Shown: positions 5,877-45,312, counted from the stretch's first letter. The stretch: 47,732 nucleotides of DNA from Selenomonas sp. (GCF_052169755.1 NZ_JBQNBV010000001.1:1-47732); one strand, 5' to 3'. Made by a program: numbers and translations. The notes: generated by a model not told the origin, from the letters alone.

Positions 5877-6626
5877 ATGATACGACTGGAAGATGTGACG
5901 AAAACTTTCGCCGCGCATACGGCGGTGCGTCATGTGAGCCTCTCCGTCAAGCGGGGCGAGACGCTCGCCGTTATCGGCGGATCCGGCTCGGGCAAGAGTA
6001 CGCTTCTGCGTCTGATGATCGGTCTGATTCGCCCGACCTCAGGAAAGATTTGGGTCGGCGATGCGGAGATCGCACAGATGACCGAATCCGAGCTTGATGA
6101 GGTGCGGCTCAAAATGGGCATGGTATTTCAGTATTCGGCGCTCTTTGACTCCATGACTGTCGGTGAGAATGTTGCTTTCGGACTGCGAGAGCACAAGAAG
6201 CTCAAGGAGAGCCGGATCGCAAGCATCGTGCGGGAGAAGCTGCATCTTGTGGGACTTGACGGCTCTGAGCACAGGATGCCCGACGAGCTTTCGGGCGGTA
6301 TGAAGAAGCGCGTGAGCTTGGCGCGCGCCATCGCCATCGATCCTGAAATCATCCTCTATGATGAGCCAAGTTCGGGGCTTGATCCCATCACGACGGCGAA
6401 AATCGATGATCTTATCATCACGATGCAAAAGGAGCTTCGCGTGACGAGCGTCGTTGTGACGCATGACATGGCGAGCGCCTGCTATATCGCCGACCGCATC
6501 GCTATGCTCGCCGGCGGTGAGCTCATCGCGCTCGATACGGTCGAGCGGTTCAAACAGATGAAAGATCCGCGCGTGCGTGCGTTTTTCCGCGCGATGGATA
6601 CGGAAGGGAAGGGGGCGGACGTATGA
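5877..6626 (+). CDS. mlaF: MlaF-family ABC transporter ATP-binding protein
   Basis: Walker A GGSGSGKS, MVFQYSALFDSMTVGENV, LSGGMKKRVSLARA, ILYDEP, VTHD; lies between mlaE and the MCE gene. Confidence 0.95.
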   Translation: MIRLEDVTKTFAAHTAVRHVSLSVKRGETLAVIGGSGSGKSTLLRLMIGLIRPTSGKIWVGDAEIAQMTESELDEVRLKMGMVFQYSALFDSMTVGENVAFGLREHKKLKESRIASIVREKLHLVGLDGSEHRMPDELSGGMKKRVSLARAIAIDPEIILYDEPSSGLDPITTAKIDDLIITMQKELRVTSVVVTHDMASACYIADRIAMLAGGELIALDTVERFKQMKDPRVRAFFRAMDTEGKGADV

Positions 6627-7906
6627 CGACGGAAGCGAAGGTGGGCGCATTCACGCTGCTCGGCATCGTGCTCTTGGCGGCGATCTTGCTGCAGTTCGGG
6701 GGATTCTCCTTTTCGACGAGCCGCAGCTATACGATCTATGTGGGGTTCACACAGGTCGTCGGTCTGGCTCCTGAAGCGGATGTGCGCTATGCGGGGGTGC
6801 TCGCGGGCAAGGTCAAGGCCATTGAGCCGGAAGGAACAGGTGTGCGTGTGACGCTTTCTGTGGATCCTGACATCCGAATCCCGCGCGATGCACGCATCAC
6901 GCTGTCGGCGAACAGCGTCCTTGGCGACAAGTTCGTTCTCATTTCTCCGGCGGGATCGAAGAGCACGGAGTATTTGAAGGACGGCGACTTCGTCATCGGT
7001 ATGGATGAGACGAGCATCGACTCTGTGCTGGATAATGTAAGCGAAGCGATTCAGGATGTGCATGATCTGCTCGGCTCCTTGAACGATATCTTAGGCAATC
7101 CACGCATGAAGGAGTCCGTCTTGGGATCGGCGGAGAATGTGCGCGAGGTTACGGCGCATATCCGAGACATGACGTCTGTGATGGGGCGCGTCGCCTTGCA
7201 GAACGAGGGAAGTATGCACGCGATGATGCGTGAGATGCAGGCGATTCTCGCGAACCTTTCGGCGACGACGGAAACTGTGCGCCAGATGGCGGCGGATGTT
7301 TCTGACGGCGGCGCGACGGCGGCGAATCTTCGCCTGACTCTTTTGAACGTCGCCAAGGCGAGTGAAAATATCCGCATGGTGGCAGAAGAGATGCACGAAG
7401 TCACAGGCGATCCGACCGTGCGTGAAGATCTCAAGACGACGATCCATCAGGCGCGCGCCGTCACGGAAAAGGCGAACGAAACCCTGGATAATCTCAGCAG
7501 CATTGAGACGCAGCCGTCGCTCGACGTGCTTTACAGCGGCAAGGAGCGCGACTGGATCACGAACTTCAACGTCGATGTATCAAGGGAAAGCGAGCCGGAT
7601 CGCTTCCTGCGCGTCGGCGTCGAGGATGTCGGCGAAGCGAATGCGCTGAATCTTGAGGTCGGGCGCACCAAGGGCAGGCTGGGGGCGCGCGCAGGGCTGA
7701 TCGCGGGCGATCCGGGCATCGGGCTGGATGCGGCGGTCGGCGGGCGCTGGCACTTCTCCGCTGACGCCTATGATCCGAACGATTTTCGACTGCGGCTTTC
7801 GGCGCAGTATCGTCTGCGTGAGGACACATATCTCATGGGGCAAATTAGAGATTTGAACCGCAGTGAACGGCGTGCCGCCTACTTCGGTCTGCATCAATCA
7901 TTTTAG
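6623..7906 (+). CDS. mlaD: MlaD/MCE protein with long helical region and C-terminal beta-strand (barrel) domain
   Basis: N-terminal TM (EAKVGAFTLLGIVLL), MCE motif GLAPEADVRYAGVLAGKV...LGDKFVLISP, long helical repeat, then amphipathic strands ending AYFGLHQSF. Confidence 0.9.
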   Translation: MTTEAKVGAFTLLGIVLLAAILLQFGGFSFSTSRSYTIYVGFTQVVGLAPEADVRYAGVLAGKVKAIEPEGTGVRVTLSVDPDIRIPRDARITLSANSVLGDKFVLISPAGSKSTEYLKDGDFVIGMDETSIDSVLDNVSEAIQDVHDLLGSLNDILGNPRMKESVLGSAENVREVTAHIRDMTSVMGRVALQNEGSMHAMMREMQAILANLSATTETVRQMAADVSDGGATAANLRLTLLNVAKASENIRMVAEEMHEVTGDPTVREDLKTTIHQARAVTEKANETLDNLSSIETQPSLDVLYSGKERDWITNFNVDVSRESEPDRFLRVGVEDVGEANALNLEVGRTKGRLGARAGLIAGDPGIGLDAAVGGRWHFSADAYDPNDFRLRLSAQYRLREDTYLMGQIRDLNRSERRAAYFGLHQSF

Positions 7907-7918
7907 GGGGAAATCATC

Positions 7919-9490
7919 GTGAAGCAGCCAAAATATTTTTCCAAGAAGCTCTGTGCGCTGGTGTTGGGCGGGTTCGTCTCTTTCGGTCTTGCATCTGCCG
8001 TCTCGGCGCAGCCTCGCTCGCTTGCGCTTGCGGAGAGCGTGGAGCTTGCTCTTGAGAACAACCGCACGATCAAGTCGTCTGTGACCGATGTCGATGCGGC
8101 AAACTGGGCGTACCGTGAAGCGCGCCGCACGGCAGGCCCGAAGCTCACGCTTTCGACGCAGGGCAGCCGTGTCGGCGGCAAGGCGTATGAGCGGTATCCT
8201 TCGGATTATGCTTATCGGAGCAGCGCGGAGCTTTCTTTCCCACTCTACACGGGAGGACGCATTGAAAACGGCATCGAGGCGGCGCGTTACGGCGTGAACC
8301 GTGCGGATCTCGCGCTTGAGGGTGTGAAGCAGGCGGTGCGCTACCAGACGACGGGTCAGTATTTCAAGGCGCTCGAATACCGCAATCTCATCAAGGTCGG
8401 CGAGATGTCCGTCGCAAATTTGAAAAGCCATCTCGACAATGTGAACGCGCAGTATCGCGTCGGTACGGTCGCACGCTCCGATGTACTCGCGTCCCAGGTT
8501 TCACTCGCGAACGCCGAGCAGAATCTCGTAAATATCAAGAATAATTACGATGTCGCCATCGCCGGACTGAACAAGATCATCGGACTGCCGACCGCCACGG
8601 AGCTTTCTCTGGCAGATGAGCTTTCTTATAAGAAGTACGATCTGGCGCTTGCGGACTGCACGGCATACGCGCTCGCACATCGAGCCGATGTCATCGCGGC
8701 GGATTATGCCGTGCGTCAAGCGAACGCCGCTTTGGAAATGACGCGCGGCGCATCCTTGCCGCAGGTCAGTGCGGCGGCGACGCGCACGGTCGGCGGCGAC
8801 AGCTGGTTCTCGAACAATACGGACTCGGCGGACACTTGGTCGATCGGCGTGCAGGCGAGCTGGGCGGCATTTGACAACAACGTGACGGCGGCGCAGGTGA
8901 ATCAGAAGCGTGCGGCGGTGCACAAGATGCAGCAGGCGGCGGAAGATATGCGCGAGCAGGCAGAGTTGGACGTGCAGACGGCGTATCTCAGTCTCTTGGC
9001 GGCAGAGAAGAATATTCGGACGACGAGCGTCGCTGTCGAACGTGCCATCGAGGACTTCAAGATTGCGCAGGTGCGCTACACGGCGGGCGTCGGTACGAAT
9101 CTCGACGTAACGGACGCGGATGAAAAACTCGTCAAGGCGCAGACGAATTACTACGATGCTCTCTACAATTACAACCTCAGCAGGGCGGCGCTCGACCGCG
9201 CTATGGGGCTGCCTGTCGATCTCGACGCCGGTTCTTATCGGGCGAAGGTCGATGCGAAGTATCATAAGGCGGCAGAGGAGCAGGCGGAGATAGCGCTTTA
9301 CCATACGGATGAAGCGGAGGCGAAGATGGCTGCCGAGCAAAAGGCGCTTGATGAAAAGAGTAAACGCAGCGCGGCGAAGGATGACGCCATGATTCCTGTG
9401 ACGCAGGGCGCGCCGGTAAAAACCGCTTCCGTCAAGACGGCGGAAAAGGATGCAGCGGCTGAAGCGGTGCAGGCAGGAAGGTCGATCTAA
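7919..9490 (+). CDS. tolC: TolC-family outer membrane channel
   Basis: Signal peptide, LAESVELALENN, LSFPLYTGG, two OEP repeats (YRVGTVARSDVL; YTAGVGTNLDVTDA), LDRAMG, then an Ala/Lys/Glu-rich tail. Confidence 0.93.
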   Translation: MKQPKYFSKKLCALVLGGFVSFGLASAVSAQPRSLALAESVELALENNRTIKSSVTDVDAANWAYREARRTAGPKLTLSTQGSRVGGKAYERYPSDYAYRSSAELSFPLYTGGRIENGIEAARYGVNRADLALEGVKQAVRYQTTGQYFKALEYRNLIKVGEMSVANLKSHLDNVNAQYRVGTVARSDVLASQVSLANAEQNLVNIKNNYDVAIAGLNKIIGLPTATELSLADELSYKKYDLALADCTAYALAHRADVIAADYAVRQANAALEMTRGASLPQVSAAATRTVGGDSWFSNNTDSADTWSIGVQASWAAFDNNVTAAQVNQKRAAVHKMQQAAEDMREQAELDVQTAYLSLLAAEKNIRTTSVAVERAIEDFKIAQVRYTAGVGTNLDVTDADEKLVKAQTNYYDALYNYNLSRAALDRAMGLPVDLDAGSYRAKVDAKYHKAAEEQAEIALYHTDEAEAKMAAEQKALDEKSKRSAAKDDAMIPVTQGAPVKTASVKTAEKDAAAEAVQAGRSI

Positions 9491-9569
9491 GGCAAAAAAG
9501 CCGCTTTTGAGGTCGCGTATCTGCATATTTCATACAGTCTGACAAATGGAGAATGAGGAGGAAGAGCCG

Positions 9570-12500
9570 ATGAAAAAGGGACGTATCGCTTTTGCGGCAG
9601 TCGTCATCGCGCTCTTCCTTTTTGCGCTCTTTTTCGGCATGGCTCTTTACATTACACGCACGGGCGCCTATGCGGAGGATATGGGCAAGACGATTTCTCT
9701 GCGTGCATCCGAACTTCTTGGCGTACCTGTCGCCGTCGACGGTGTGCGCATCGAGTCCGCGCATAGAATCTCGCTTGAGGGCATTCGCGTGCAGGACAAA
9801 GCGGGAGAAGAGCTTGCCCATGCCGCAGCCGCCGAAGTGGATCTGAGCATCTTCGCTGTCTTTTCTTCCTCGCCCGCCGCCGCCGTATCCCATGTGACGG
9901 TCGTGGAACCTGTATTGTATCTGCGCCAGCGCGAGGACGGCAGTTGGAACGCTGCCGATCTCGTACAGGAGGGAGACACCGCGGGCGATTTTCGCGCTAA
10001 GGTCAGCGTGCAGAAAGGCGCAGCAAGCGTTGTCTTTTCCGGCAAGGAGATCGCTTTTGCGGATATCGAGGCGGAATTTGACTTTGCGGAAGCCTCATCC
10101 GTTGCCGTCGAGGGGCGGGCGACGAGCAAGGGAGCGCCGCTTGTCGTCGAGGGTGAAGTTTCTTCGAAACGGCAGGAGCTTGAGATCACTGGTGAAAATA
10201 TCGATGCGATGGACTACCTTGCATTTTTGCCCGAGGGAACGCTTCCCAGAGAGATCGAGCCGCAGGCGCTTTTCATCGACGAGGCGAAGATGAAGTTCGT
10301 ATGCGAAGGCGGCGACGCATCGCTTGCAGGCGACGTGCGTTTTTCGAATGCACAGGCGCTTGTGTACGGCACGAAGGTCGAAGATGGGCGAGGACTGCTT
10401 CTTCTGGCAGGCGAGGATGCACGCATCTTTTTGCGCGCGCAGACCACAGGGCAAGAGGCGTCTCTGCATGGCAAGATCGCATGGCGAGAGGCGGAGCCGA
10501 GCTTCAATTTCGTCGTGGAATCCGCTGCGTTCGATCCGTCGGCAGTCTTGGCGCAAAGTCCGTTCGAGGGCAAAGTGCGCGTTCTTGCATCCGTTTACGG
10601 TACAGCGCATGACTGGAAAATTGACGGTGCGTGTGAGGCTGCTTCCGGCACGCTTTACGGTCATGCACTGACGGGTGCGAAAGTCAAGGCGCACTTCGAA
10701 AACGGGCTTTTGACGGCGAGCGGCGGAGCGAATGCCTTGGGCGGCGCAGTCGCAGGACAGGGGCTGCTCCATGCGGACGACGGCTCGTACAGCGCACATG
10801 TTGAGGCGAAGGATCTTGCAGGGGAAGAGATCGCTGCACTGCTATCTACCGAGGAGCTTTCCTTGCAGGGACGCTGCGACGCCGATGTCGTGCTTGAGGG
10901 CAAGGGTGCGGATGCAGATGGGCTTCTCGCTTACGGCACTGTCGCCGTCGCGGGGGCGTCGTTTCGCGGCGTCGAGATCGAGCGTGTTTCGACATCCTTC
11001 TTCAAGCAAGGGAAGCTGCTTCATTTTGACAATCTCAATCTTTCTTTTGCGGCGGGCGGCACGCTGGTCGTTGAGGGTGATGTGAGAGACTTTGACAACC
11101 TCGATCTGCGCTTTTACGGCACGGCGCTGCCGCTTGCTCTCGCAGATGCTTTTGTGCCCGAGGCTGCGGCTTCCGGCACGCTCGACATTGCAGGAGCGGT
11201 GCGCGGCGCAGCGGCGAATCCTATGGTCGAGGCAAATTTCGAGGGAGCGGCGGGCAATGCTTTTTGCCAGCCTTTTGATACCTTCCACGGCGCGGTTCAT
11301 GGAAGCGCCGACGGCATTGTGATCGACCATTTCTCTGTGGAACGCGGCGGCAAAGAAACGTGGATCGCCGAGGGCAGCATCGGTCTTACGGGGGCGAAGC
11401 GTCTCGATGTCCGCATCGATTCGATCGGCGCACGCATGGAGGATGTGGCGGCTTTCGTTGCGCCCGACCAGCCGATCACAGGAAACGTCGACAACACGAT
11501 TCATTTCACGGGCACGCTTGACAACCCGTCGGCAGTCGGCTACATTCATTTCTATCGCGGCAGCTACAACGGCTATATCCTCTCGGGTATGGACGGCGAC
11601 TATTATCTGGAAAACGGCGTCGTGCGGCTGCAGGATTTCCACATCTTTTCGCCGCTCGTCGATGTCGACTTGAACGGCGCCGTCACACGGGACGGTGTGC
11701 TCGACCTCTACGCCGACGTACACGACGTAAGTCTCGACCGCTTTGGCAGCAAGCTGCCGTATCCGGTCAGCGGTCATGGCACATTTGCCGGGCATATTTC
11801 GGGTACTCTTGAGATGCCGCAATTCCTCGGCGTGTTCGATGCCAAGACACTCAAGCTCAACGGGCAGGATATCGAAACCGTGCACGGCGAGGTCGTCTTT
11901 GGCGACGATGTGCTGCGCGTGGAAAATACGCATTTCAAGCAAAATGGCGGCAGCTATGCGATGAAGTGCACGGCGAACCTTGAAACGCAGGCGCTCGATG
12001 GCGTTTTGCAGGTGGAAAACGGCGATGTGCGCGCGCTCTTCGCTATCGCGAATCTCAAGAACGATATTCTGGAAGGGCGGCTTGACGGTGCGATTCGTCT
12101 CGCCGGTACGCTGGAAAATCCGCTCGCGGAGCTGGATGCCGTCGTCCGTGAGGGCAAGGCAAGCGGCTATGAGATACGCGATCTCGTGCTCGACGTCAAG
12201 CTTGCTGACCATGTCGTGACGATCCGCGAACTGCACGGCAGACAAGGCGAGGGCGTTTTTGCCGCGCAGGGGCGCATTCCCTTGAACGATGCCGCGATGG
12301 ATGCACAATTTGCGGCGAACGGCGTTGCCGCCGGCATGGTCGCGAAAGCCGCAGGCGCGACTGCCGATGTGCGCGGCACGCTCGATCTCGCCGTGCAGTT
12401 CGGCGGTACGGTTAAAAATCCGAGGGCAAACGCTTCCGTCGAAGTGAAAAACGGCGGTGTGGGCGCATCGACATTTGATGATATGACAGGGCTTTTGAAT

Positions 12501-13904
12501 CTCAAAAACGGCGTCATACATATCGATCAGCTCCTCGTGAAAAAGAAGCTTGGCGATCGCATTTACAGCGCGAACGCCAAGGGAAAGATCCCCGTCAAGA
12601 GCCTGACGGCGGCTTCGGATGAGTGGCTTGACGCGCCCGAGCAGATTGATTTGACGCTGTCCCTTGACCGCGCCGATCTCTCGCTGCTGCCGATCCTCTC
12701 GCCTGCAGTTGATTGGGCTGTCGGCCCGACGAAGGGGAAGGTGCGCGTGACAGGGACGTTGGCGCAGCCCTATTTTGAAGGTGAGATCAGCCTGACGGAC
12801 GGCGCACTGAAACTCAAGGACGTCGCGATACCTGTGACGGAGATGAAGGCGCGTCTGCGCTTTGTCGGCAGTACGATATCCCTTGAGGACTGCACGGGCA
12901 AGATGGGCGCCGGCTCTTATCGCATCACGGGCAGGACGGCGTTCTCCGGTGCGCGGCTGCAAGACTACACGCTCGATTTTACCGCCGATGAACTTGGCGT
13001 CGTCAGCAGCTTCTACAACGGGCCTTTGACGGCTGCGTTTCATATCGAAGAAGGCGAGATGGACGGCGAGAAAATGCCAAAACTCACAGGCAAGGTGCTG
13101 GTCCATCATGCGACGCTTTCGATTCCGTCCATACCCGACAGTGAGAGTGCGCTGCCCAAGATGCTTCTCGACGTCGGGGTGACGCTCGGCGAGCGCGTGC
13201 GGTTTTTCAGTCCGTCGCTCTACGATATGCGTTTGGCAGGAGCCTTCCACTATGGCGGCACGACGCGTCACATTGAGCCGTCGGGCACGATCACCGTCGA
13301 GCGCGGCACGATCACTTACAACAAGACACGCTTTACCATTCGCGACGGCGAGGCATATTTCAATCAGATCGGCTCCTTTTTGCCGAGCCTCACGCTTGAG
13401 GCGGATGCACACTTCGGCAAAGTGCGCATCTTCCTGCACACGAAAGGGCCTATCGGCGCGATGGAGATGCGCCTGACGTCCATGCCCGCGATGAGCGAGA
13501 CGGAGATCCTGCGTCTTTTGACCTTCCAGACCGCCGATTTGCGGACGGAGCAGGCGTTGACATCGCTTCTGAGCTTCGGGCTTTCGATGACGATTCTCGG
13601 CGAGTTGGAAGCGAATGTACAAAACGCGCTGGGGCTTGATGAGTTCCGCATTGCGGGCGAGGATGTGGCGACGACGGATCAAGCGGGGCTGAAATCCGGC
13701 GAGAGGGATCGAAGCCTTGAATACAACTTGGAAGTCGGAAAGTATATCAACGACAAGGTCATGCTGCGCTACAAGCAGGGCATAGGCAACAAGGTGCGCG
13801 AGTTCGGCGTGCGCTACGATTTCAACGACCGCATGAGTCTGTATTGGAATCGCGACGAAGATGCAAACTCGGTCGTCGGTCTTGAAGCGCGTATCAAATT
13901 TTAG
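9570..13904 (+). CDS. tamB: TamB/AsmA-like translocation and assembly module protein
   Basis: About 1440 aa; N-terminal TM anchor, LYLRQREDGSWNAADL AsmA-like motif, repetitive Gly-rich beta segments, DUF490-like C-terminus (LTSMPAMSETEILRLL...LEVGKYINDKVMLRY) ending EARIKF. Start at the ATG at 9570 after GAGGAGG. Confidence 0.9.
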   Translation: MKKGRIAFAAVVIALFLFALFFGMALYITRTGAYAEDMGKTISLRASELLGVPVAVDGVRIESAHRISLEGIRVQDKAGEELAHAAAAEVDLSIFAVFSSSPAAAVSHVTVVEPVLYLRQREDGSWNAADLVQEGDTAGDFRAKVSVQKGAASVVFSGKEIAFADIEAEFDFAEASSVAVEGRATSKGAPLVVEGEVSSKRQELEITGENIDAMDYLAFLPEGTLPREIEPQALFIDEAKMKFVCEGGDASLAGDVRFSNAQALVYGTKVEDGRGLLLLAGEDARIFLRAQTTGQEASLHGKIAWREAEPSFNFVVESAAFDPSAVLAQSPFEGKVRVLASVYGTAHDWKIDGACEAASGTLYGHALTGAKVKAHFENGLLTASGGANALGGAVAGQGLLHADDGSYSAHVEAKDLAGEEIAALLSTEELSLQGRCDADVVLEGKGADADGLLAYGTVAVAGASFRGVEIERVSTSFFKQGKLLHFDNLNLSFAAGGTLVVEGDVRDFDNLDLRFYGTALPLALADAFVPEAAASGTLDIAGAVRGAAANPMVEANFEGAAGNAFCQPFDTFHGAVHGSADGIVIDHFSVERGGKETWIAEGSIGLTGAKRLDVRIDSIGARMEDVAAFVAPDQPITGNVDNTIHFTGTLDNPSAVGYIHFYRGSYNGYILSGMDGDYYLENGVVRLQDFHIFSPLVDVDLNGAVTRDGVLDLYADVHDVSLDRFGSKLPYPVSGHGTFAGHISGTLEMPQFLGVFDAKTLKLNGQDIETVHGEVVFGDDVLRVENTHFKQNGGSYAMKCTANLETQALDGVLQVENGDVRALFAIANLKNDILEGRLDGAIRLAGTLENPLAELDAVVREGKASGYEIRDLVLDVKLADHVVTIRELHGRQGEGVFAAQGRIPLNDAAMDAQFAANGVAAGMVAKAAGATADVRGTLDLAVQFGGTVKNPRANASVEVKNGGVGASTFDDMTGLLNLKNGVIHIDQLLVKKKLGDRIYSANAKGKIPVKSLTAASDEWLDAPEQIDLTLSLDRADLSLLPILSPAVDWAVGPTKGKVRVTGTLAQPYFEGEISLTDGALKLKDVAIPVTEMKARLRFVGSTISLEDCTGKMGAGSYRITGRTAFSGARLQDYTLDFTADELGVVSSFYNGPLTAAFHIEEGEMDGEKMPKLTGKVLVHHATLSIPSIPDSESALPKMLLDVGVTLGERVRFFSPSLYDMRLAGAFHYGGTTRHIEPSGTITVERGTITYNKTRFTIRDGEAYFNQIGSFLPSLTLEADAHFGKVRIFLHTKGPIGAMEMRLTSMPAMSETEILRLLTFQTADLRTEQALTSLLSFGLSMTILGELEANVQNALGLDEFRIAGEDVATTDQAGLKSGERDRSLEYNLEVGKYINDKVMLRYKQGIGNKVREFGVRYDFNDRMSLYWNRDEDANSVVGLEARIKF

Positions 13905-13914
13905 GGGGGACGTC

Positions 13915-14541
13915 ATGAAACTCGAAGAGTATTTGAGCGAGTTGGAAAAAGTTGAGATGCTTTCACTCGAAGAAGAACGCCGACTTTGGCAGGCGTTCAA
14001 GGAGCGCGGTGAAAGGACGGCGAGACAGCGCCTTATCGAAGCGTACCAGCCGCTCGTATTCAAGACGGCTCTTCCGTGGCGCACGAGCGCGAGCATCATG
14101 GACGTCATCCAGGAAGGCACGGTCGGCCTCATCGAAGCGACGGAGAGCTTCGACTGGCAGCGCGGCGTCGCATTCAGCCTCTTCGCCGTCCATCGCATAC
14201 GCGGCAGGATGCTGAACTTCCTGCAAAGGGAAGGGAAGCGTGACGTCGCCTGCATGGATGCGCCGCGAGCTGACGGCAGAGAGCCGTGGGAACTTCTGCC
14301 CGACACGGGGCTTTCCGTCGCCGAGCAGGCGGAATTGGGACTCATGACGAAAGAACTTCATCGGGCGCTCGCGCGACTGCCGCAGAAAGAGCGTCTCGTC
14401 TTAGAGGGCGTTTACTTAAAGAGCGAGGCGGCGGCGAAGCTCGCCGATGTGCTCGACGTGAGTGCGGCGCACATCTACCGCCTGCAAAAGAGCGGCATAC
14501 GCCGCGTGCGCGGTATGCTCACGCGCTTTATGCGCTTTTGA
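13915..14541 (+). CDS. Sigma-70 family alternative RNA polymerase sigma factor
   Basis: Region 1.2-like MLSLEEERRLW, region 2 DVIQEGTVGLIEATESFDWQRGVAFSLFAVHRIRGRM, region 4 LPQKERLVL...LADVLDVSAAHIYRLQKSGIRRVR; GGGGGA RBS. Confidence 0.92.
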   Translation: MKLEEYLSELEKVEMLSLEEERRLWQAFKERGERTARQRLIEAYQPLVFKTALPWRTSASIMDVIQEGTVGLIEATESFDWQRGVAFSLFAVHRIRGRMLNFLQREGKRDVACMDAPRADGREPWELLPDTGLSVAEQAELGLMTKELHRALARLPQKERLVLEGVYLKSEAAAKLADVLDVSAAHIYRLQKSGIRRVRGMLTRFMRF

Positions 14542-14555
14542 GAGGGGGAAAGACG

Positions 14556-15140
14556 ATGGCGGAGGAAAGGGAACGGCTCTGTGCGCACATCAAAGCGGCA
14601 AAGGATTGGCTCGGGCGTGCGGAATCTTCTCTGGAAAGGGAAAACGACATCAAGGGCGGCTTGAGCCTCATGCTCGCAGAGGCGGAGCTGCAACGTGCGC
14701 GTGAAACGCAAAGGATGAAGCGTCTCGCGCAGGTTCTTGCGCCGACGCTCGCGCTCTTTTTCGCTCTGGGCGGCGTCTTTCTTTATCGTGCGTTGGATTC
14801 GCCGGCGCCGTCTGTGGAGCAAAGTTACGCCGAAAGTGCACCGAAAAAAGATCATACGCCCGCAGCGCAGGAAGCGCAGGCATCGCCTGCTGCATCAGCC
14901 GCGGATGCTCCGCACGGGGCGGCGTCGGCTTCTTCCGTGCTGTCGGAGCAGCCTGTCGTCACTTCTGCTCCGGCAAAGGAAGCAAAGATGTCGGCTGACG
15001 TGCAGCCGGCGCATCCTGTACAGGATGCGCCGCAGGTGGAGCCGGAGCAGGCGAAAGTTGCAGCCGCTGACACCGCGTCCCCGCCTGCACACGATCTGCA
15101 GAAGCTCATGCTTTCTGCGGGACGCATCCTCAGAGAATGA
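14556..15140 (+). CDS. Single-pass membrane protein directly after the sigma factor (candidate anti-sigma)
   Basis: About 55-aa helical N-terminus, one TM (LAPTLALFFALGGVFLY), Ala/Pro/Ser-rich linker, short terminal helix LQKLMLSAGRILRE; GAGGGGG RBS 14 nt after the sigma stop. The function is inferred. Confidence 0.7.
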   Translation: MAEERERLCAHIKAAKDWLGRAESSLERENDIKGGLSLMLAEAELQRARETQRMKRLAQVLAPTLALFFALGGVFLYRALDSPAPSVEQSYAESAPKKDHTPAAQEAQASPAASAADAPHGAASASSVLSEQPVVTSAPAKEAKMSADVQPAHPVQDAPQVEPEQAKVAAADTASPPAHDLQKLMLSAGRILRE

Positions 15141-15188: not shown

Positions 15189-15216
15189 TTGACCTCAACG
15201 GCATTCATGGTAAACT
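15189..15216 (+). promoter_or_regulatory. Putative distal bamA promoter (TTGACC-16-TGgTAAACT)
   Basis: TTGACC 15189-15194, TAAACT 15211-15216, with TG extension. Confidence 0.55.
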
Positions 15217-15295
15217 ATACGTACAAACGTCCACTTTGTGGACATTGTACGTCGCCCTTACCAGAAAGCAGCCAATCAGTCTGCACCCTTCGGGT

Positions 15296-15323
15296 TTGAC
15301 TTCTTGGGCTTTCATGGTAGAAT
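15296..15323 (+). promoter_or_regulatory. Putative proximal bamA promoter (TTGACT-16-TGgTAGAAT)
   Basis: TTGACT 15296-15301, TAGAAT 15318-15323, with TG extension; about 40 nt before the ATG. Confidence 0.65.
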
Positions 15324-15364
15324 AAAGAACATACCGAAGATCATGGGAGGTTGGAAACTTGGAT

Positions 15365-17275
15365 ATGAAAAGAACGCGAATCCTTGCTGGAGCCGCAGCG
15401 TTTGCTGTGGGGGCTGCCGGCTTTTCCGCAGACGTTTCTGCGGCTGTTGCCGTCGTGGGTACGATGCAGAACGATCAGGAGATGAAGAATGCTGCCGCTG
15501 ATGCGGCGGAGATTCATCGGGTGGAAACGCAGTCTGCGGACGAGAATGCCGCCGCCGCCAAGGCGATGCCAAAGGATGCGCGTGTTGAGGCTTGGGAGGC
15601 TGTGCGCCCCGACGAGCGCAAGGTTGAGGAAGATGCGAAGATCGCTGACGGCAAGACCATCGTTGACATCGTCGTCGATGGTGCGGGCGCTGACACGATG
15701 GCGACGGCGCGTGCGGCTCTCGTGCAGCGCGTCGGCGATGCCTATGATGCGCAGAAAGCGCAAAATGACCGTTCCGCCATCTTCGACACAGGCTATTTCT
15801 ACGATCTCTACCCATCGTGGCAGTACGTTCCCGAGGGCGTCGTCCTCACCTATCATGTCTTGGAAAATCCCGTGCTGAAATCGGTGAAAATCGAGGGCAA
15901 CACGGTGGAGACGACGGAAGATCTCGAAAAGCTCATCACGCTCAAGACAGGGCAGGTGATGAACAGCCGCGAGCTGCAGAAGAATGTTTCCGCCATGCAG
16001 GAAAAGTACAGGGCGGACGGGTTCATTCTCGCCAAGATCGAGGATATGAACATCGACGCTTCGGGAGAGCTTACGCTCAAAGTCAACGAAGGAAAACTTG
16101 AGGGTTTTGCTGTCAAGGGCAATACAAAGACGAAGGATCGTGTCATCCTTCGGGAGATGCGCCTTAAGATCGGCGAGCCTTTCGACGTGAAGAAAGCGCG
16201 TCGGAGTATGCAGCGCATCTACAATTTGGGATTCTTCGAAGATGTGAATATGAAGCTCAATCCGGGCGAAGCGCCGGGGTCTGTCATCTTGGAAGCGGAT
16301 GTCGTCGAAAAGCGCACGGGCAACTTCGGCATAGGCGCGGGTTACAGCTCCTCAGACGGCTTCGTCGGTATGCTCAACGTCGGCGATACGAACTTTCGCG
16401 GCATGGGCGATGCGGTGAGCCTGCTCTATGAGATGAGCGGCGACGATACGGATGCGCACGGCTTCGTATTCTCCTATCGCCGTCCTTGGCTGGACAGCAA
16501 GGAGACGACGGGATCGCTTCGCATTTACAACCGCACATACGAGTACGACGACTACGATACCGAGGGCAACCTGCAGGAAGAGTACATGAGGAAGTACTCG
16601 GGCGCTGAGATCACGCTCGGTCGTCCGGTCAACGAGTATTCGACGAACTTCATCACACTGCGCAACCGCACGGACACCTATGTGCATCATAAGAGCGGCG
16701 CCAACCGCAGCACGCCGCGCTGGAAGGCGTGGCGCGATGCGAACTTCGGTACGACGCGCAGCATTACGCTGCAGCGTGTGACCGATACGCGCGACAATAT
16801 CTACAACCCGACATCGGGCGGGCGCATGAGCCTTGAAGCGGAGTTTGCAGGTTTTGGCGGCGACTTCAACTATCAGAAGTTCACGGCAGAGGACAAGCGC
16901 TTCTTCAAGGTCGGCAGGGCGCAGACCATCGCTTTGCGCGGTCAGCTCGGCTATGCGCGCGGCTCGATTTCCGAGTCGAACCTCTATAAGCTCGGCGGAC
17001 AGGATTCTTTGCGCGGCTACCGCGACGATCAGTTCCGAGGTACGCACCTCTTCCTCGCGACGGCTGAGTATCGCTTCCCGATCGTGAACAAGGTGCAGGG
17101 CGCAGTCTTTACCGACTGGGGAAATGCGTGGAGCGGCGAGCGTTTGCCCAATACGATCAAGGGCAGCGTCGGCGTCGGTCTGCAGCTTGAGACGCCGGTC
17201 GGTCCGATTCGTCTCGATTACGGCCGCGGCTCGGACGGCGGGCGTGTGCATTTCAGCGTCGGCGGCTCCTTCTGA
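15365..17275 (+). CDS. bamA: Omp85/BamA outer membrane protein assembly factor
   Basis: Signal peptide, three POTRA repeats (e.g. VKGNTKTKDRVILREM...YNLGFFEDV), GNFGIGAGYSS strand 1, LGGQDSLRGY (VRGY-like motif), ETPVGPIRLDYG, C-terminal FSVGGSF. Confidence 0.95.
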   Translation: MKRTRILAGAAAFAVGAAGFSADVSAAVAVVGTMQNDQEMKNAAADAAEIHRVETQSADENAAAAKAMPKDARVEAWEAVRPDERKVEEDAKIADGKTIVDIVVDGAGADTMATARAALVQRVGDAYDAQKAQNDRSAIFDTGYFYDLYPSWQYVPEGVVLTYHVLENPVLKSVKIEGNTVETTEDLEKLITLKTGQVMNSRELQKNVSAMQEKYRADGFILAKIEDMNIDASGELTLKVNEGKLEGFAVKGNTKTKDRVILREMRLKIGEPFDVKKARRSMQRIYNLGFFEDVNMKLNPGEAPGSVILEADVVEKRTGNFGIGAGYSSSDGFVGMLNVGDTNFRGMGDAVSLLYEMSGDDTDAHGFVFSYRRPWLDSKETTGSLRIYNRTYEYDDYDTEGNLQEEYMRKYSGAEITLGRPVNEYSTNFITLRNRTDTYVHHKSGANRSTPRWKAWRDANFGTTRSITLQRVTDTRDNIYNPTSGGRMSLEAEFAGFGGDFNYQKFTAEDKRFFKVGRAQTIALRGQLGYARGSISESNLYKLGGQDSLRGYRDDQFRGTHLFLATAEYRFPIVNKVQGAVFTDWGNAWSGERLPNTIKGSVGVGLQLETPVGPIRLDYGRGSDGGRVHFSVGGSF

Positions 17276-18573
17276 TGCTTTTGCGAAGGGGCGGGGTGCG
17301 GAAGTTTCTTGCGCTGTTCGCCCTCATATTCTTTTGGGGAGGAAGCGTCGCTTTCGCTTCGGGCACGATCAGAGCGGTTCAATCGGAAGTTACGGCAGAT
17401 GCAGGCTCCTTGCCGCCCGCTGTCAAGGTGCGCATGGAAAAGAGCGTCTCTGCCATCGCTTCACAGCTGATCGAAGGAAAGCCGCTCGCTTCTTATGAAA
17501 GACGCAGGGCAGCGGATGAAGCGACGATCCGTGAAGTGTTCGACAAGGTGCTCGTCGGCTACTCCGTCACGGCTGTCTCCATTGAAGCGGGCGAAGAGGC
17601 GCACGTTAAGATCGCGCTCATGCCGTGGGCGGATCGCGTCACGGACGTCGAGGTGGAAATCGTCGTTGAGGGGGTTTCGCCTGCTGTCGAAGCGATGGCA
17701 AGAGCCGACCTCGCAGGCGTCGATGTCGTCTTTCGCCGGAGCTTGGAAGGGCTTCCGTCAGCCGCTGTCGATTGGACGAACGGCGTCTTGAAGGAGAGTC
17801 TGAACGCCTATATGACGGAGCATTTGCCCGAATTCCGCGCCGACTTTGACGTCGAGACGGCAGAGAAGTCGCACGTTGTTTTGACCGTCTATCCGAAGAT
17901 GCCCGTCGTGCGTACGGTCGATCTCGCCATGCGCTCGGACACGATTCCGAACTTCACGCTGCTCGAAAAACGCAGCATATTGCAGGCAAAAGCCAACGAG
18001 ATGCTCGGCGTTCCCGTCGCCTTTGCGGCGCGTCACGAGAAGCAGTTTGCGCACGCTATGGAAACGGCGCTCGATACATCGAGAGAATTTCGCGCACTCG
18101 GCTTAAAGACGCACACGACGATCGCTGCGGGCGAGCAGACCTCGATCATGAGCCGCAGTGATACCACGCGATATCGTCTGCGGCTGGAAGGCTGGGGCGA
18201 TGTCGGCAGGGGTTCGGCTGACAGTTCTGCGGTATGCTTTCGCGGCCATGCGGGGGCGATGCTCTCTCGTGACGATGAAGTGTTCCTGCAGGCAGATGTG
18301 CTGCCGCAGGATTTCGCATGGAGTTGGGAGCTCGGTTATGAGCGGCGCATTGCGGGGCGTTTTTTTGCACGGCTGCGTTACGACATGCGCAGGCACGCAT
18401 GGACGACGGGGCTGCGCGCCGAACCTTTGCCGCGCGTAGCTCTGCGCTACGAGTATCGTCGCGGCGATTCGACGGGTGAGGCAGGGCTTAGCTATCGTCT
18501 GCACGACTTTCTTCGCGTAGAGCTTGTGAAAGACTCTTCGCAGCAGTGGCTGCGTCTGATTGGCGATTTTTAA
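17275..18573 (+). CDS. Exported hypothetical protein with repeated POTRA-like units and a C-terminal beta-strand domain
   Basis: Overlaps the bamA stop (TGATG). Signal peptide ending AFA, three ~85-90 aa alpha/beta units, alternating-strand C-terminus ending WLRLIGDF. Start could be the GTG at 17296. Confidence 0.7.
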   Translation: MLLRRGGVRKFLALFALIFFWGGSVAFASGTIRAVQSEVTADAGSLPPAVKVRMEKSVSAIASQLIEGKPLASYERRRAADEATIREVFDKVLVGYSVTAVSIEAGEEAHVKIALMPWADRVTDVEVEIVVEGVSPAVEAMARADLAGVDVVFRRSLEGLPSAAVDWTNGVLKESLNAYMTEHLPEFRADFDVETAEKSHVVLTVYPKMPVVRTVDLAMRSDTIPNFTLLEKRSILQAKANEMLGVPVAFAARHEKQFAHAMETALDTSREFRALGLKTHTTIAAGEQTSIMSRSDTTRYRLRLEGWGDVGRGSADSSAVCFRGHAGAMLSRDDEVFLQADVLPQDFAWSWELGYERRIAGRFFARLRYDMRRHAWTTGLRAEPLPRVALRYEYRRGDSTGEAGLSYRLHDFLRVELVKDSSQQWLRLIGDF

Positions 18574-18623: not shown

Positions 18624-18694
18624 GTTTATCGTTGGGTAATAGAAGAAGGATTGTCTGGCAATCTTCTTCCAAAGAGAAAAGGAGACTAAAAGAA

Positions 18695-19156
18695 ATGGTG
18701 AAACTTCAGAAGACACAGGTAAAGATTTTCTGCGTGGCTCTCGCGCTCGTGTTCATCGGCTCTGTCGTAGCTCTCGGGCTTTCGCAGCTCGGTACGAGCA
18801 CTGCGTCGGCGGCATCGTCGTCTGTCGGCGTCGTTGACTACCGCAAGGCTATGGCAAGTCATCCGGACTACGCTTCGGCGTCGAACGAGATGCAGAAAGC
18901 GATGCAGGAAGCGCAGATGCGCTTTGAGGCTGATACGGCGAACAAGAGCGATGAGGAGAAAGCAAAGGCGATGCAGCAGGCGCAGATGGAGCTGCAGCAG
19001 AAGGAGCAGGATCTCCTCGCGGGCATTCAGAAGAAGGTTGACGCCGCTGTCAAGCAGGTCGCCGAAGCGAAGGGACTATCCGTCGTTCTTGACAAGAACG
19101 CTGTTGTCTATGGCGGACAGGATATCACGGACGACGTCGTGAAGAAGTTCAAATAA
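18695..19156 (+). CDS. skp: OmpH/Skp periplasmic chaperone
   Basis: VGVVDYRKAMASHP...coiled coil...AVKQVAEAKGLSVVLDKNAVVYGGQDITDDVVKK; AAGGAG RBS. Confidence 0.9.
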   Translation: MVKLQKTQVKIFCVALALVFIGSVVALGLSQLGTSTASAASSSVGVVDYRKAMASHPDYASASNEMQKAMQEAQMRFEADTANKSDEEKAKAMQQAQMELQQKEQDLLAGIQKKVDAAVKQVAEAKGLSVVLDKNAVVYGGQDITDDVVKKFK

Positions 19157-19250
19157 GAGATACGGATATTGAGCGCGCGAGCGCATGAGGTACCGGGCGG
19201 GCTTCCTGCCCGGTACTTTTGAATCTCAGGGCTTTTCGGGGGTGGAAGCG

Positions 19251-20330
19251 GTGACGCAGGAAAAAGGAGAGGTGCGCAGCGCGGGTTTTTGGCTCAAGCA
19301 TAGAAACACGCTTTGCGGCGTCTTTGTCGTCGCGCTCATCCTGCTTCTCGGCAGCGCTGGTTTTTTCTTTCGCGCGTCTTTGCAGCCGCCGCCGTCGCCT
19401 CCGGCGCCGCAGGAGCCGGGCGGCATCGGCGTCGTTGATCTTGCGCGTGCGGAGAAGGTGCATGAGGTATACGCGCAAATCGCTGCGCTTGACGCAGAGC
19501 GAGCCGTGATTGCCGCTGATATTGCACGTCTCAGCGCCGATCGCCGCGCATGGAAGCCGCCTGCACTCTCGGACGAGCCGTTTCAGCTTGCGGCAGAGCA
19601 AAAGGAACTGCAGCAGGAGCGGCTTGCAGCGGAAGGACGTGCACGCGAGCGCCGCAAAGCGCTTGCTGCATGGGAAGAAGAAACGAAAGAGGCGTTCCTC
19701 GCCGAAAAGAAGGTGATTGAGGACGCCTATCAAAATCGCATAGTGAATATCGAGATGAAGATCGACAACCGCGAAGCTATGCTTCTCTCGGCTGACGATG
19801 TAAAAACGCTCCTGCAGGAGCTTGAAACCCTGCGCAATGAACGCGGCACACGCATAGAGGCGCTTTTTGCCGCACGCGATGAAAAGAGGCGGCAATATCT
19901 CGCCGCGCTTATCGCGCGAGACGAAGCGCTCGGGAAAAGCAGTGCGGCGCAGGAAGAAGCCGCACGCCAAAAAGCGGAAGCCGACAAACGCAACCGCGAA
20001 GCGCTTCGGCAGGCGATGCAGGGCATTGAGATCGACGAGCTTCTGAACCGCAAAAAAGCAGCTCTCGCGGCGAAAGACGAGGAGATTCGCATCCTGCGCG
20101 AGCATATTCGCAAGGATATTGAGAGCAAGACGGCGAAGCTCGCAATCGTCCATCGGCTCGCTTTTGTCGTCGTAAAAGAAACGGACGAAGCCGTGGGCGT
20201 GCGGCGTGAGGAAGATGCTGCGACGATGCTGCGCTTCCCCGTTCATGTGTCCGATGCAGTAGACTTGACGGACGAAGTTATCGCCGAGCTTGCATCGGGA
20301 ACAATTTTAGAAAGAAGTGGAAAATCATGA
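19251..20330 (+). CDS. Elongated, membrane-anchored OmpH/Skp-like protein
   Basis: TM helix, Pro linker, Skp-like IGVVDLARAEKVH, very long coiled coil, Skp-like end AVDLTDEVIAEL. Start uncertain (19185, 19251 or 19272). Confidence 0.75.
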   Translation: MTQEKGEVRSAGFWLKHRNTLCGVFVVALILLLGSAGFFFRASLQPPPSPPAPQEPGGIGVVDLARAEKVHEVYAQIAALDAERAVIAADIARLSADRRAWKPPALSDEPFQLAAEQKELQQERLAAEGRARERRKALAAWEEETKEAFLAEKKVIEDAYQNRIVNIEMKIDNREAMLLSADDVKTLLQELETLRNERGTRIEALFAARDEKRRQYLAALIARDEALGKSSAAQEEAARQKAEADKRNREALRQAMQGIEIDELLNRKKAALAAKDEEIRILREHIRKDIESKTAKLAIVHRLAFVVVKETDEAVGVRREEDAATMLRFPVHVSDAVDLTDEVIAELASGTILERSGKS

Positions 20331-34103: not shown

Positions 34104-34251
34104 AAAAAATTGGTTTTTATTATGCCTTTATGATATGATTAAAAGAAAATGCTGAAGAGTTGGAGAAGATGAGGTGAAGCGCCATTGTTCAAGATGCTCA
34201 GTATTTGGATGATCGGGGAATCGTTTTTCAAAAATGATGGGAGAGAAGCGC

Positions 34252-37221
34252 ATGTGCCATAAGACGAGCATCATCATCTTGAGCTATAATACGTTGGAGC
34301 TTTTGCAGCTCTGCATCGCGAGTATACGCGAGTTTACGGAGGCGGGGACGTATGAGATCATCGTCGTCGAGAACGCATCGAAGGACGGCTCGATCGAGTG
34401 GCTGAAGGCGCAGACGGGGCTTACCTGTATTTACAACGAAGAGAATCAAGGCTTTCCCGGAGGCTGCAATCAAGGTCTGGAAATCGCGGCAGGGACGGAG
34501 CTTTTGCTCCTCAACAGCGATACCGTCGTCACGAAGGATTGGCTGAAGAATCTGCGCTTCGCCCTTTACAGCAGCCCGAAGGTCGGCGCTGTGAGCTGTG
34601 TGACGAACCATTGCTCGAATAATCAGCGCATCGATGTATCTTATGAAAGCATCGAAGCGATGCTCGCCTTTGCGGCAGATTACAACCGCTCGAATCCAGC
34701 CCTTTGGGAGAAGCGGACGAAGCTCGTGGGCTTTTGCTTTCTGTTCAAGCGAGAGGTGTTTGAGCGCGTGGGCTTCCTCGATGTCCGCTTCAATCCCGGC
34801 AACTATGAGGATGACGACTACTCGCTGCGCATCCTGCAGGCGGGCTATGATCTGCTTCTCTGCCGAGACACCTTTATTCATCATTACGGCGGAGCATCCT
34901 TTGAAAAGAAGCTCGCTGTACGAAATGCAGCAGAAATGAAAGAGCGCTATAATGCGGCTTTGATGAGAAATCACAAAATATTTTTTGAAAAGTGGCAGGC
35001 GCCTGAGGATTATTGGAAAATGGCGCCGGAAGAGCTGCTTCCTTATCTGCGGCGGCAAGCGCCGGAAGATGTCTCAGCCGCTTCGGCGGCGCAGACGATC
35101 GCCGTTCTTGTGCGCAGGACAAATGAGGAGCGCTATGCGCTCTGCCTGAAATCTCTCTATGCGGCAAATATCCCCGCAGGCTACGCTTTGGAGATTTTCC
35201 CGCTGTCGATAGAGCGATCTTATGCGGCGCAGGTGAATGAAGTCCTTGCCCGCACAACGGCGAAGATCAAAATCTTTATGAGTGATGACGTCTGCCTGAC
35301 CTCGCCTTTGGCGATTGAGCAGATGTTGCGAGTTTTTCAGGATGAGACTGTCGGCATGGCGGGGGTTCTCGGCAGCCGCTCGCTTCCGATGAACGGCAAT
35401 CTTTTGGATGCTCCCGATCTTAGGGGTGGCGTCTATATGCCGATGAAGGGGGATTTGGAGGAGATCCGCTTTGGCAGCGCTGCCGCCGAGAAATTTGTGG
35501 AGGACGTGCGCTTTCTCTGCCCGTCCTTTTTCGCGACGCAGTTCGATCTTGCATGGGACGAGAGTTATGAGGGGCAGTATTATGCCGTTCTCGCGCATTG
35601 TCGCGCGATGGAGGAGCGCAGCAAGAGGCTTGTTGTCCCGCTGCCGCATGAAATCTGGTGCGCCTATCAGCGCGAGAACATATCCTTTGAGGCGGACGAG
35701 AAAGATCGCCGGCGCTACTTTGCAGCCTATCATCCCTATGCGGGGGAGGCGGTCTTTGCCAAGGATCAGCTTGCTCTTTATGCGTGCGGCAAGGAGGCTG
35801 CTGTCGAAGGCTGGCAGAGCTTTTCTCATCCCGAGGGAATCGCCGTCGGCGCTCGGACGAAGTTTCATGAGACGGTGTTGTGCCGGCTGCTGGCAGATAA
35901 TTTCGTGGGCGAGCCGTGCATCTTTGTCGGCGACGACTGCACGATAGACGCATGTTCTACGCTTACGGCATACAATCGCATTGTGCTGGAAAATCTCGTG
36001 ACCGTGGGTGCGAATGTTCATATCAGGGACTATGGCTATGTGGAGGAGGATCTCGGACTCGCCGTGCAAGACCGCATGCTCCTTGGGCATGGGCGCGGCG
36101 TCCATATCGGCTGTGCGGCAGAGATCGGAGCGAATGTCGTCATCGAGGGCGCTGTGCAGATCGGCTGCGGCGCACGCGTCCGCGCGGGAAGCGTGGTGAA
36201 GATCGACATCCCCGCCTACTGCATCGCCGAGGGCAATCCCGCACACGTCGTCAAGGCCTTTTCCTCGCGCGAGGGGAAGTGGCTTGCAACGCCCGACGCG
36301 GCGGCGCTTGCGGAAGTCTTGGCTGAGCGCGAAAAGACGGGGCCGCTTCTGACCTATGCCTTCATCACATACAACCGCAGCCAATATTTGAGAAAGTCTC
36401 TCAGGAGCGTGCTGCAGCAGGCGGCGGACGATCCGCTCGTCGAAGTTCTCGTCTCCGATAATGCCTCGACGGACGAGACGCGGGCTCTCGTAGAGGAACA
36501 GCAAAAGCGGTACAAGAACCTGCGCTATCACTGCAATGAGAAGAATGTCGGCGCGGAGGGCAACATCCATAAGGCGATTGAGAGAAGCCGCGGCGAGTAC
36601 GTCATCGTCGCGGGAGATGACGACTATCTTCTCAATGGTGCGCTTCGTGTCATCTTGGATCATATTCGGAAATATCGGGGAGCGGCGATTTTCCATCTGC
36701 GCAGGGAAGATGTGCCGCGCCGCGTGTATGAGGATGCGGGAATCGTCCCGTATATTGCCTATGTCGGCTATCACATGACGTGGATCGGCGGCATTGCTTT
36801 TCGGCGCGAGCTGTATTCGCTCATTGACGAGCCGCAAAGGTATGATGCTACGCGCTTGCCGCAGGTATATCTGCAGATGGAGATGCTGAAGAAGAATCCG
36901 AAGTTCGTCATCCTCTATGGCATGTTTCTGGCGGAGGGAACGGGCGAGTGCATACCTTCGGGCTTCAATTTCGCTGAAGTTTTTGTCAAGAACTACCTCG
37001 ATATTTTGCAGGAAATTCCTGAAATTCCAGCGTATTTGCTGTCCGACGAAAAGAAGCGCCTGATGGACGAGCTGGTTTACGATTGTTTGGAGAGGATCGT
37101 GCGATATCAGCATGATTTATCGCTGGACGGAATCTTTGACATCGTGCGCGACTATTACGGTGAGGAGCCGTACTACGAAGAAGTCGTAGCGAAGATGAAG
37201 GAGATCTTGCAGGGAGTGTGA
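34252..37221 (+). CDS. Multidomain glycosyltransferase: GT2 (A) + degenerate GT-A-like (B) + hexapeptide acyltransferase-like (C) + GT2 (D)
   Basis: SIIILSYN...VVENASKDG...LLLNSD...YEDDD (A); IAVLVRR...FMSDD (B); LbH repeats ending IAEGNPAHVV (C); FITYNRS...VSDNASTD...AGDDD (D). Confidence 0.88.
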   Translation: MCHKTSIIILSYNTLELLQLCIASIREFTEAGTYEIIVVENASKDGSIEWLKAQTGLTCIYNEENQGFPGGCNQGLEIAAGTELLLLNSDTVVTKDWLKNLRFALYSSPKVGAVSCVTNHCSNNQRIDVSYESIEAMLAFAADYNRSNPALWEKRTKLVGFCFLFKREVFERVGFLDVRFNPGNYEDDDYSLRILQAGYDLLLCRDTFIHHYGGASFEKKLAVRNAAEMKERYNAALMRNHKIFFEKWQAPEDYWKMAPEELLPYLRRQAPEDVSAASAAQTIAVLVRRTNEERYALCLKSLYAANIPAGYALEIFPLSIERSYAAQVNEVLARTTAKIKIFMSDDVCLTSPLAIEQMLRVFQDETVGMAGVLGSRSLPMNGNLLDAPDLRGGVYMPMKGDLEEIRFGSAAAEKFVEDVRFLCPSFFATQFDLAWDESYEGQYYAVLAHCRAMEERSKRLVVPLPHEIWCAYQRENISFEADEKDRRRYFAAYHPYAGEAVFAKDQLALYACGKEAAVEGWQSFSHPEGIAVGARTKFHETVLCRLLADNFVGEPCIFVGDDCTIDACSTLTAYNRIVLENLVTVGANVHIRDYGYVEEDLGLAVQDRMLLGHGRGVHIGCAAEIGANVVIEGAVQIGCGARVRAGSVVKIDIPAYCIAEGNPAHVVKAFSSREGKWLATPDAAALAEVLAEREKTGPLLTYAFITYNRSQYLRKSLRSVLQQAADDPLVEVLVSDNASTDETRALVEEQQKRYKNLRYHCNEKNVGAEGNIHKAIERSRGEYVIVAGDDDYLLNGALRVILDHIRKYRGAAIFHLRREDVPRRVYEDAGIVPYIAYVGYHMTWIGGIAFRRELYSLIDEPQRYDATRLPQVYLQMEMLKKNPKFVILYGMFLAEGTGECIPSGFNFAEVFVKNYLDILQEIPEIPAYLLSDEKKRLMDELVYDCLERIVRYQHDLSLDGIFDIVRDYYGEEPYYEEVVAKMKEILQGV
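34258..34890 (+). repeat. Direct repeat copy 1 (GT2 domain A coding region)
   Basis: Begins CATAAGACGAGCATCATCATC and aligns colinearly by eye with 41461-42093. Confidence 0.85.
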
Positions 37222-37270
37222 GATCTAGGAGGTCAAGCGGACGCAGAAAAGAAAGATGCGGTGAACAAAA

Positions 37271-39187: not shown

Positions 39188-39299
39188 CGGATGGGGGAAT
39201 CGCCTGCGCTTCTGTGACAGAGAAGTTGGAAATAGCGGAAGCCTTGGCGATGTCTCCGCAGATCATCCCTGACGTGATGTATGAGAAAGGATTTCTTCC

Positions 39300-42270: not shown

Positions 42271-42323
42271 TGGGGTAGGGGCAGGCGTTTCCCCGAATCC
42301 ATAAAGACAAAGGAGATGAAATC

Positions 42324-43097: not shown

Positions 43098-43139
43098 AGA
43101 GTGACGTGCGCTCCGCACAGTTTGCAGAGAAAGAGGAAT

Positions 43140-44111: not shown

Positions 44112-44215
44112 TGAAAATGCGCTTTCGCTTGTCAGCGTAGGATGCGGGAAAGATTTCCCGTTTGGAAGCGGTGGCGTTTGACCGATGAATCATTTGATGT
44201 TTTGAGGTGAATGGT

Positions 44216-45234: not shown

Positions 45235-45312
45235 TTAAGTGCATGTCGTTTGCAAGATCGGTCGACGGGTATCATTCGTGCAAGGGTTTTTCAACGACGG
45301 GAGGGATTTGCC

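Follow-up and report, generated by a model that had tools for sequence, protein, structure and literature searches.

The stretch of DNA analysed here, referred to as the window, is a 47,732-nucleotide segment of Selenomonas sp. (NZ_JBQNBV010000001.1:1-47732) that carries the outer-membrane gene cluster of a Selenomonas-type Negativicute, with S. sputigena as its closest named match (75%). The genes run in the order peptidase S55, mlaEFD, tolC, tamB, sigma, sonB, bamA, sonA, skp, a 381-aa gene, skp and lpxD. Our subject is sonA (17275..18573, plus strand, as are all features below), which encodes a 432-aa outer-membrane protein, together with the two genes with which it is gained and lost, i.e., a sigma-70-family alternative sigma factor containing regions 2 and 4 (13915..14541; family match and orthologue survey) and sonB (14556..15140; 194 aa, assigned by position through locus comparison), a putative anti-sigma. 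Between these two halves of the module lies bamA (15359..17275; family match), whose stop is overlapped by one base by the sonA ATG (TGATG), as a first-pass annotation made from the DNA alone had noticed. Because a 425-aa database record of the same protein exists, a start seven codons further downstream is possible.

The first-pass annotation described the protein as novel, a claim that does not stand, as SonA of Acetonema longum (F7NM22) was named in February 2026 by Beskrovnaya et al. (PMC13018214). The Selenomonas protein is the orthologue of F7NM22 (hit P0152, UniRef100_F7NM22), with 30-31% identity over 407 aa, i.e., full length (30% identity and E 1e-61 pairwise; E 1.1e-50 in a library search), and passes the homology cut-offs of that paper (E 1e-30, 25% identity; PMC13018214). 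It resembles the A. longum protein in size, in its three POTRA-like repeats and 10 strands and in its place after bamA, and the published synteny of sonB-bamA-sonA-skp is found in the window, where SonB is identified by position. In A. longum, SonA is predicted to have a Sec/SPI signal, three POTRAs and 10 strands, was found in carbonate-enriched membranes (9, 15 and 14 peptides) and showed partial protease protection in liposomes, and the fold and membrane location proposed in the first pass agree with this account (PMC13018214). The same paper does not assign a function to SonA, regards SonB (F7NM24) as a putative outer-membrane lipoprotein, surveys 36 Negativicutes only and reports both proteins absent from V. 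parvula and A. fermentans (PMC13018214). The term sigma factor has 0 occurrences in its main text; F7NM25, between tamB and sonB in A. longum, is annotated as a sigma factor, and the locus tags follow the order tamB-sigma-sonB-bamA-sonA-skp (PMC13018214). Elsewhere the outer-membrane cluster is described, in the text available, as tamB-bamA-skp (PMC5491611, PMC5007114). Our search of the open-access literature returned one paper on SonA, no report that connects it with a sigma factor and no outer-membrane stress response of diderm Firmicutes tied to sigma, sonB and sonA. The protein is already known, and its link to the sigma factor and SonB is new here.

A predicted Sec signal peptide (aa 1-28, ending AFA; 17275..17358), read by eye and including a helix at residues 8-21 of low predicted local distance difference test score (pLDDT), is followed by POTRA-like repeats 1 (aa 30-118; 17362..17628), 2 (aa 119-209; 17629..17901; with an invariant W167) and 3 (aa 210-298; 17902..18168), and by a predicted beta-barrel of 10 strands joined by very short loops (aa 299-432; 18169..18570). 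The AlphaFold model, made with 108 homologues, has a pLDDT of 94 and consists of three beta-alpha-alpha-beta-beta units and ten strands. The three units are true repeats, being mutually homologous with hhalign probabilities of 96-97%. When repeat 2 was folded alone, its six top VIA matches were all POTRAs of TamA or BamA, at modest scores (Z 5.8-6.4, root-mean-square deviation (rmsd) 2.6-3.6, 68-80 residues aligned), its top Foldseek match was TamA (TM-score 0.52, E 0.02), and the full-length model matched the Omp85 family in Foldseek at E of about 1e-10. The first reading of a signal peptide, three similar POTRA-like units and a small C-terminal membrane barrel was therefore correct, and the AlphaFold and Foldseek check that it suggested returns POTRA topology and a strand count of 10. 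At the level of sequence, searches of Pfam, NCBIfam and the PDB with SonA gave no useful match, a word-index search with distant homologues retrieved only members of the family itself, the repeats showed no similarity to BamA POTRA profiles (hhalign probability <=2%), and neither PF07244 nor PF08479 occurred among 25 of the 26 families listed for the 108 members. Five homologues (P0055, P0062, P0068, P0077 and P0102) carry an acylphosphatase label in NCBI/UniRef, a label that lacks family support.

The barrel strands are amphipathic, with an alternating pattern conserved across the 108 homologues, and the structure closest to the barrel is a designed transmembrane one with 10 strands (Z 13.2, 130 of 134 residues aligned, rmsd 3.0). 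The C-terminal residue is F in 41/108 homologues and L in 54/108. This closed barrel gives no support to the earlier proposal of a half Omp85 barrel that completes a hybrid one, and such a half-barrel or hybrid was rejected as the resting state, as the profile matched either half of the BamA barrel with a probability of <=5% (hhalign). SonA does resemble Omp85 proteins such as BamA and TamA in having POTRA-like repeats ahead of a C-terminal barrel. It differs from them in its strand number (10, not 16), in matching neither PF01103 nor PF07244, in having no profile similarity to the domains of BamA from the same genomes and in lacking the (V/I/L)RG(F/Y) loop-6 motif, which was found in 3/108 SonA vs 133/136 BamA sequences.

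SonA is present in 237/301 Negativicutes, the other 64 remaining negative by profile, and 58 of these 64 have bamA; SonA as an essential subunit of the beta-barrel assembly machinery (BAM) was rejected on this count. In the phylum sample (n=401), the 30 genomes with SonA matches, one of them barrel-only, all fall within the 100 that are Omp85-positive, and the family reaches beyond Negativicutes to other Bacillota classes and to Ca. Sysuimicrobiota. Set against that of Omp85 and bamA, this distribution indicates that SonA needs an outer membrane yet is not essential to BAM. The barrel-only case is a 185-aa SonA-like gene after bamA (L077:8495-9049, G386) in a genome that lacks both the sigma orthologue and SonB, possibly a SonA relic that lost its repeats.

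The module genes are co-inherited. The order tamB-sigma-sonB-bamA-sonA-skp holds across the fetched SonA loci, with gaps at contig ends, in the rearranged G187 and G283, and in L255, and the same order was found in 21/21 loci of sufficient length, out of 33 taken from Ca. Sysuimicrobiota and from Armatimonadota-labelled and unlabelled metagenome-assembled genomes. Strong SonB matches occur in 235/237 SonA-positive vs 0/64 SonA-negative Negativicutes, and the two SonA-positive genomes without one are fragmented assemblies; 13 weak matches (E 7e-6 to 8e-4 vs <=2e-18), 11 of them in SonA-negatives, were set aside as low-complexity. The orthologue of the sigma factor, which in the window scores best with RpoH/SigF/FliA-type models, was found in 0/58 bamA-positive SonA-negative Negativicutes vs 22/22 positive controls, the best match in those 58 having an E of 5e-23 and the matches being partial ones to other sigma factors. 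In 15/19 SonA-negative Negativicutes loci tamB directly adjoins bamA, and sigma and sonB are both missing from 20/20 other SonA-negative loci. As the module genes flank bamA, their joint loss needs two deletions around it. When module presence was placed on a 135-row BamA tree there were 12 state changes, at least 10 of them imposed by strong branches; one of the losses falls inside a single genus. Hitch-hiking is argued against by G187 and G283 (L200, L260 and L261), in which bamA-sonA has moved away from tamB-sigma-sonB and all three module genes are nevertheless retained.

The window SonB consists of a conserved N-terminal helical hairpin, one transmembrane helix, a Pro/Ala/Glu-rich linker and a conserved C-terminal helix (aa 176-194). 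Across 92 loci the hairpin is a conserved domain of 50 residues, the transmembrane helix starts at a median of residue 65 and the linker has a median length of 86 aa. Lys and Arg are more numerous before than after the transmembrane helix in 91/92 loci, 53/92 lack Cys altogether and a lipobox-like motif occurs in 6/92. On this pattern a lipoprotein was rejected, and SonB is better read, from its predicted topology, as an N-in inner-membrane protein. Its layout matches that of an anti-sigma. With a sigma gene adjoining a predicted bitopic protein that has a conserved cytoplasmic domain, and with the pair co-inherited, SonB is likely an inner-membrane anti-sigma. Two loci depart from the usual arrangement: L063 has two extra open reading frames inserted between sigma and sonB, and L147 has a truncated SonB, discussed below.

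The two ends of SonB have separate histories. Outside Negativicutes, sigma is absent from 66/69 Omp85-positive SonA-negative Bacillota, and sigma and SonB are kept in 3/69. These three (L256, L257 and L258, from three Bacillota families) retain the sigma factor and the SonB hairpin, have no SonA and lack the SonB tail motif (3/3), which is carried by 130/135 SonA-positive SonBs (background 4-9%). These three genomes link the hairpin to the sigma factor and the tail to SonA.

The gap between sigma and sonB exceeds 100 bp in 81/92 loci, and there sonB is preceded by a bipartite motif, G-n-C-n-A-n-A-A, 14 nt, then (G/T)GA(C/T)TATA, which survives leave-family-out tests (11/18, 38/54 and 4/9 above all shuffles). 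We infer that it is the promoter recognised by the adjacent sigma factor. The upstream regions of bamA, skp, tamB, tolC, lpxD and sigma lack the motif, apart from one match of 12.2 before skp in a negative locus. One further match of 13.2 bits, in the genome of the window (G000 C181 near 2568, minus strand) lies 119 nt upstream of a GroES-like gene and may be due to chance. Expression of the three genes in A. longum increases jointly, with log2 fold changes of 2.8 (sigma), 3.2 (sonB) and 2.6 (sonA) in the second of three contrasts, which by the text of the paper is germination, and sonB reads stand about 2.7 log2 units above those of sigma (PMC13018214 data).

Around the module, the window contains tamB (9546..13904; family match), which is kept when the module is absent, and a skp/ompH gene (18632..19156; family match). 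Between the two skp genes lies the 381-aa coiled-coil gene (19185-20330), which has no significant Pfam or NCBIfam match; most loci have a gene of similar size in its place. The earlier statement that the window holds no bamB-E or tamA is upheld, with no Pfam match among its 33 open reading frames, a search that for BamB-E covered the window and not the whole genome; for TamA, a genome search gave nothing above cut-off. Three more partial Omp85-family matches in the genome (G000 C101, C52 and C107) are likely two-partner secretion pores. Further downstream (34234-47669), multi-domain family 2 glycosyltransferases are clustered with FkbM methyltransferases, a short-chain reductase and an HMGL-like enzyme. 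In six other Bacillota loci (L082, L087, L088, L095, L096 and L098) peptidase S55 adjoins bamA, and these loci lack tamB.

Joint gain and loss with the sigma factor and SonB make it likely that SonA is the outer-membrane end of a previously unrecognised envelope signalling system and not a helper of BAM. Specifically, the evidence tips us, by a modest degree, towards SonA being the outer-membrane anchor and sensor of a trans-envelope switch composed of the sigma factor and SonB, probably one that reports on outer-membrane protein assembly. SonA would be exported by Sec and inserted as a client of BamA, after which its repeats, perhaps where repeats 1 and 2 meet, would hold the C-terminal helix of SonB across the periplasm, and the cytoplasmic hairpin of SonB would in turn hold the sigma factor. 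The SonB tail would become free when barrel assembly lags, or when the outer membrane is free of protein as in a germinating spore, and the sigma factor might then be released; the polarity of the signal and this release are both guesses. Once released, the sigma factor could drive transcription of sonB-bamA-sonA-skp from the conserved non-sigma-A promoter before sonB. A broader and more tentative proposal, which we hold at rather less than even probability, is that an ancient, dedicated gauge of BAM activity is common to diderm Firmicutes and Ca. Sysuimicrobiota. In it, insertion of SonA as a reporter barrel would capture the tail of SonB, an anti-sigma spanning the periplasm, and the sigma factor would turn on bamA and skp whenever barrels are lacking, including in the protein-free outer membrane of the spore at germination.

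Several observations weigh against this interpretation. The co-inheritance counts include related genomes, which are not independent. A distant uncultured lineage (L255) has bamA-sonA-skp (6105-9320) preceded by unrelated genes, with no sigma factor or SonB in the 6 kb upstream that the available stretch covers, and in L147 an intact SonA is accompanied by a truncated SonB of 131 aa. Searches of Pfam, the PDB and the Atlas gave SonB no match to an anti-sigma family. The alignments used to define the tail motif were also those in which it was counted, and a held-out tail profile failed to separate the SonA-positives outside Negativicutes from the three exceptions; a simple tail pattern is present in 15/15 of those positives. 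Covariation by Gaussian direct coupling analysis with within-clade permutations (5-6 each) linked the SonB tail to SonA repeats 1-2 (z 6.1 and 6.3; permutation maxima ~4.5), a signal that was gone once one clade of 36 was removed. Because it is clade-dependent we do not count it as support; the same analysis gave no signal for SonA repeat 3, the barrel, BamA (maximum z 5.0) or sigma, nor, at low power, for the sigma factor with the SonB N-domain. Furthermore, the promoter motif is absent from the lineage of the window, where sigma and sonB are 15 bp apart, a motif scan of this genome gave no regulon, and bamA-sonA is preceded by two ordinary sigma-70-type promoter-like sites (15189..15323; consensus matches only). 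This genome therefore gives no evident sign of feedback on bamA.

An alternative, which we regard as unlikely, is that SonA is a dispensable accessory of BAM or TamB, passing substrates to BamA or pairing strands with BamA or TamB, and that the sigma factor and SonB only regulate or assist it. This was the role offered in the first pass and is one suggestion in PMC13018214. It accommodates the translational coupling of sonA to bamA, the position of sonA directly 3' of bamA in every case, even where the pair has been relocated and in L255, the POTRA-like fold, and a barrel profile like the C-terminal strands of TamB (hhalign 92%). However, MlaD strands match the barrel equally well (93%), and the TamB match may therefore be one of generic hairpins. 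The barrel is closed and without the Omp85 motif, and the BamA cross-linking co-immunoprecipitation in A. longum reported, in the text available, only a porin and peptidase S55 (PMC13018214). An accessory role is further disfavoured by the repeated absence of SonA where bamA and tamB stay and by its absence from the 58 bamA-positive Negativicutes and from 69 other Omp85-positive Bacillota, and it leaves unexplained why the sigma factor and the SonB tail are lost along with SonA. As a separate point, the likeness of the SonA barrel to strands of both MlaD (6623-7906) and TamB in the window may reflect either common origin or generic hairpins.

A little more doubtful again is a purely structural role, in which SonA and SonB tether the inner to the outer membrane and the sigma factor is merely a dedicated transcription factor that is lost with its targets. 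The SonB linker could be long enough to span the periplasm, the tail is lost along with SonA, and the promoter-like motif before sonB would suit a dedicated factor. Such a tether would not need the strongly conserved cytoplasmic domain, however, and three SonA-less genomes keep this hairpin and the sigma factor with the tail gone. The sigma factor is also kept in loci where it lies 12-35 bp from sonB, in which no internal promoter was found.

We give very little credence to the model of PMC13018214 in which SonA inserts itself and thereby seeds a new outer membrane as spores germinate: the partial protection in liposomes and the germination induction fit it, but that paper itself finds no link to sporulation ability and describes spontaneous insertion as general among small barrels (PMC13018214), and the model leaves the link to the sigma factor and SonB unexplained. 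Equally improbable is a role as receptor or small pore for an external solute, with signalling through SonB, for although charged residues are conserved in the lumen (e.g., E335, E402, E416 and R427) and the three-part layout is that of FecA/FecR/FecI, the modelled loops of 2-9 residues leave little surface for an external ligand, there is no plug domain, and the gene has a fixed site in a core outer-membrane biogenesis cluster and not beside uptake genes.

In cell-surface signalling of the FecA/FecR/FecI type, an outer-membrane barrel with a periplasmic domain, a bitopic anti-sigma and a sigma factor are encoded together. The module has the same parts, if SonB is the anti-sigma that we propose, and differs in that SonA is not a TonB-dependent 22-strand receptor and has neither plug nor STN domain, SonB has no FecR domain, and the sigma factor is RpoH/SigF/FliA-like. 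In sigmaE/RseA and RcsF-type surveillance, the assembly state of outer-membrane proteins is read across the periplasm, and the logic proposed here would be similar, with such a readout controlling bamA and skp. The RsgI proteins of the SigI/RsgI systems of Firmicutes have an N-terminal anti-sigma domain, a transmembrane helix, a Pro-rich linker and a terminal sensor, a layout that SonB follows in its N-terminal domain, transmembrane helix, Pro-rich linker and terminal element. Unlike in these systems, the sensor would be a dedicated barrel, and family searches found no homology of SonB to RseA or RsgI.

The association of the sigma factor, SonB and SonA suggests for each of the two Son proteins a function that can be tested, reassigns SonB from a lipoprotein to a likely inner-membrane anti-sigma, and makes the module a candidate for a response of diderm Firmicutes to outer-membrane stress. 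If true, this would explain how bamA is turned on when a spore builds its outer membrane from scratch, and the occurrence of the module in a further phylum is relevant to the age of outer-membrane surveillance.

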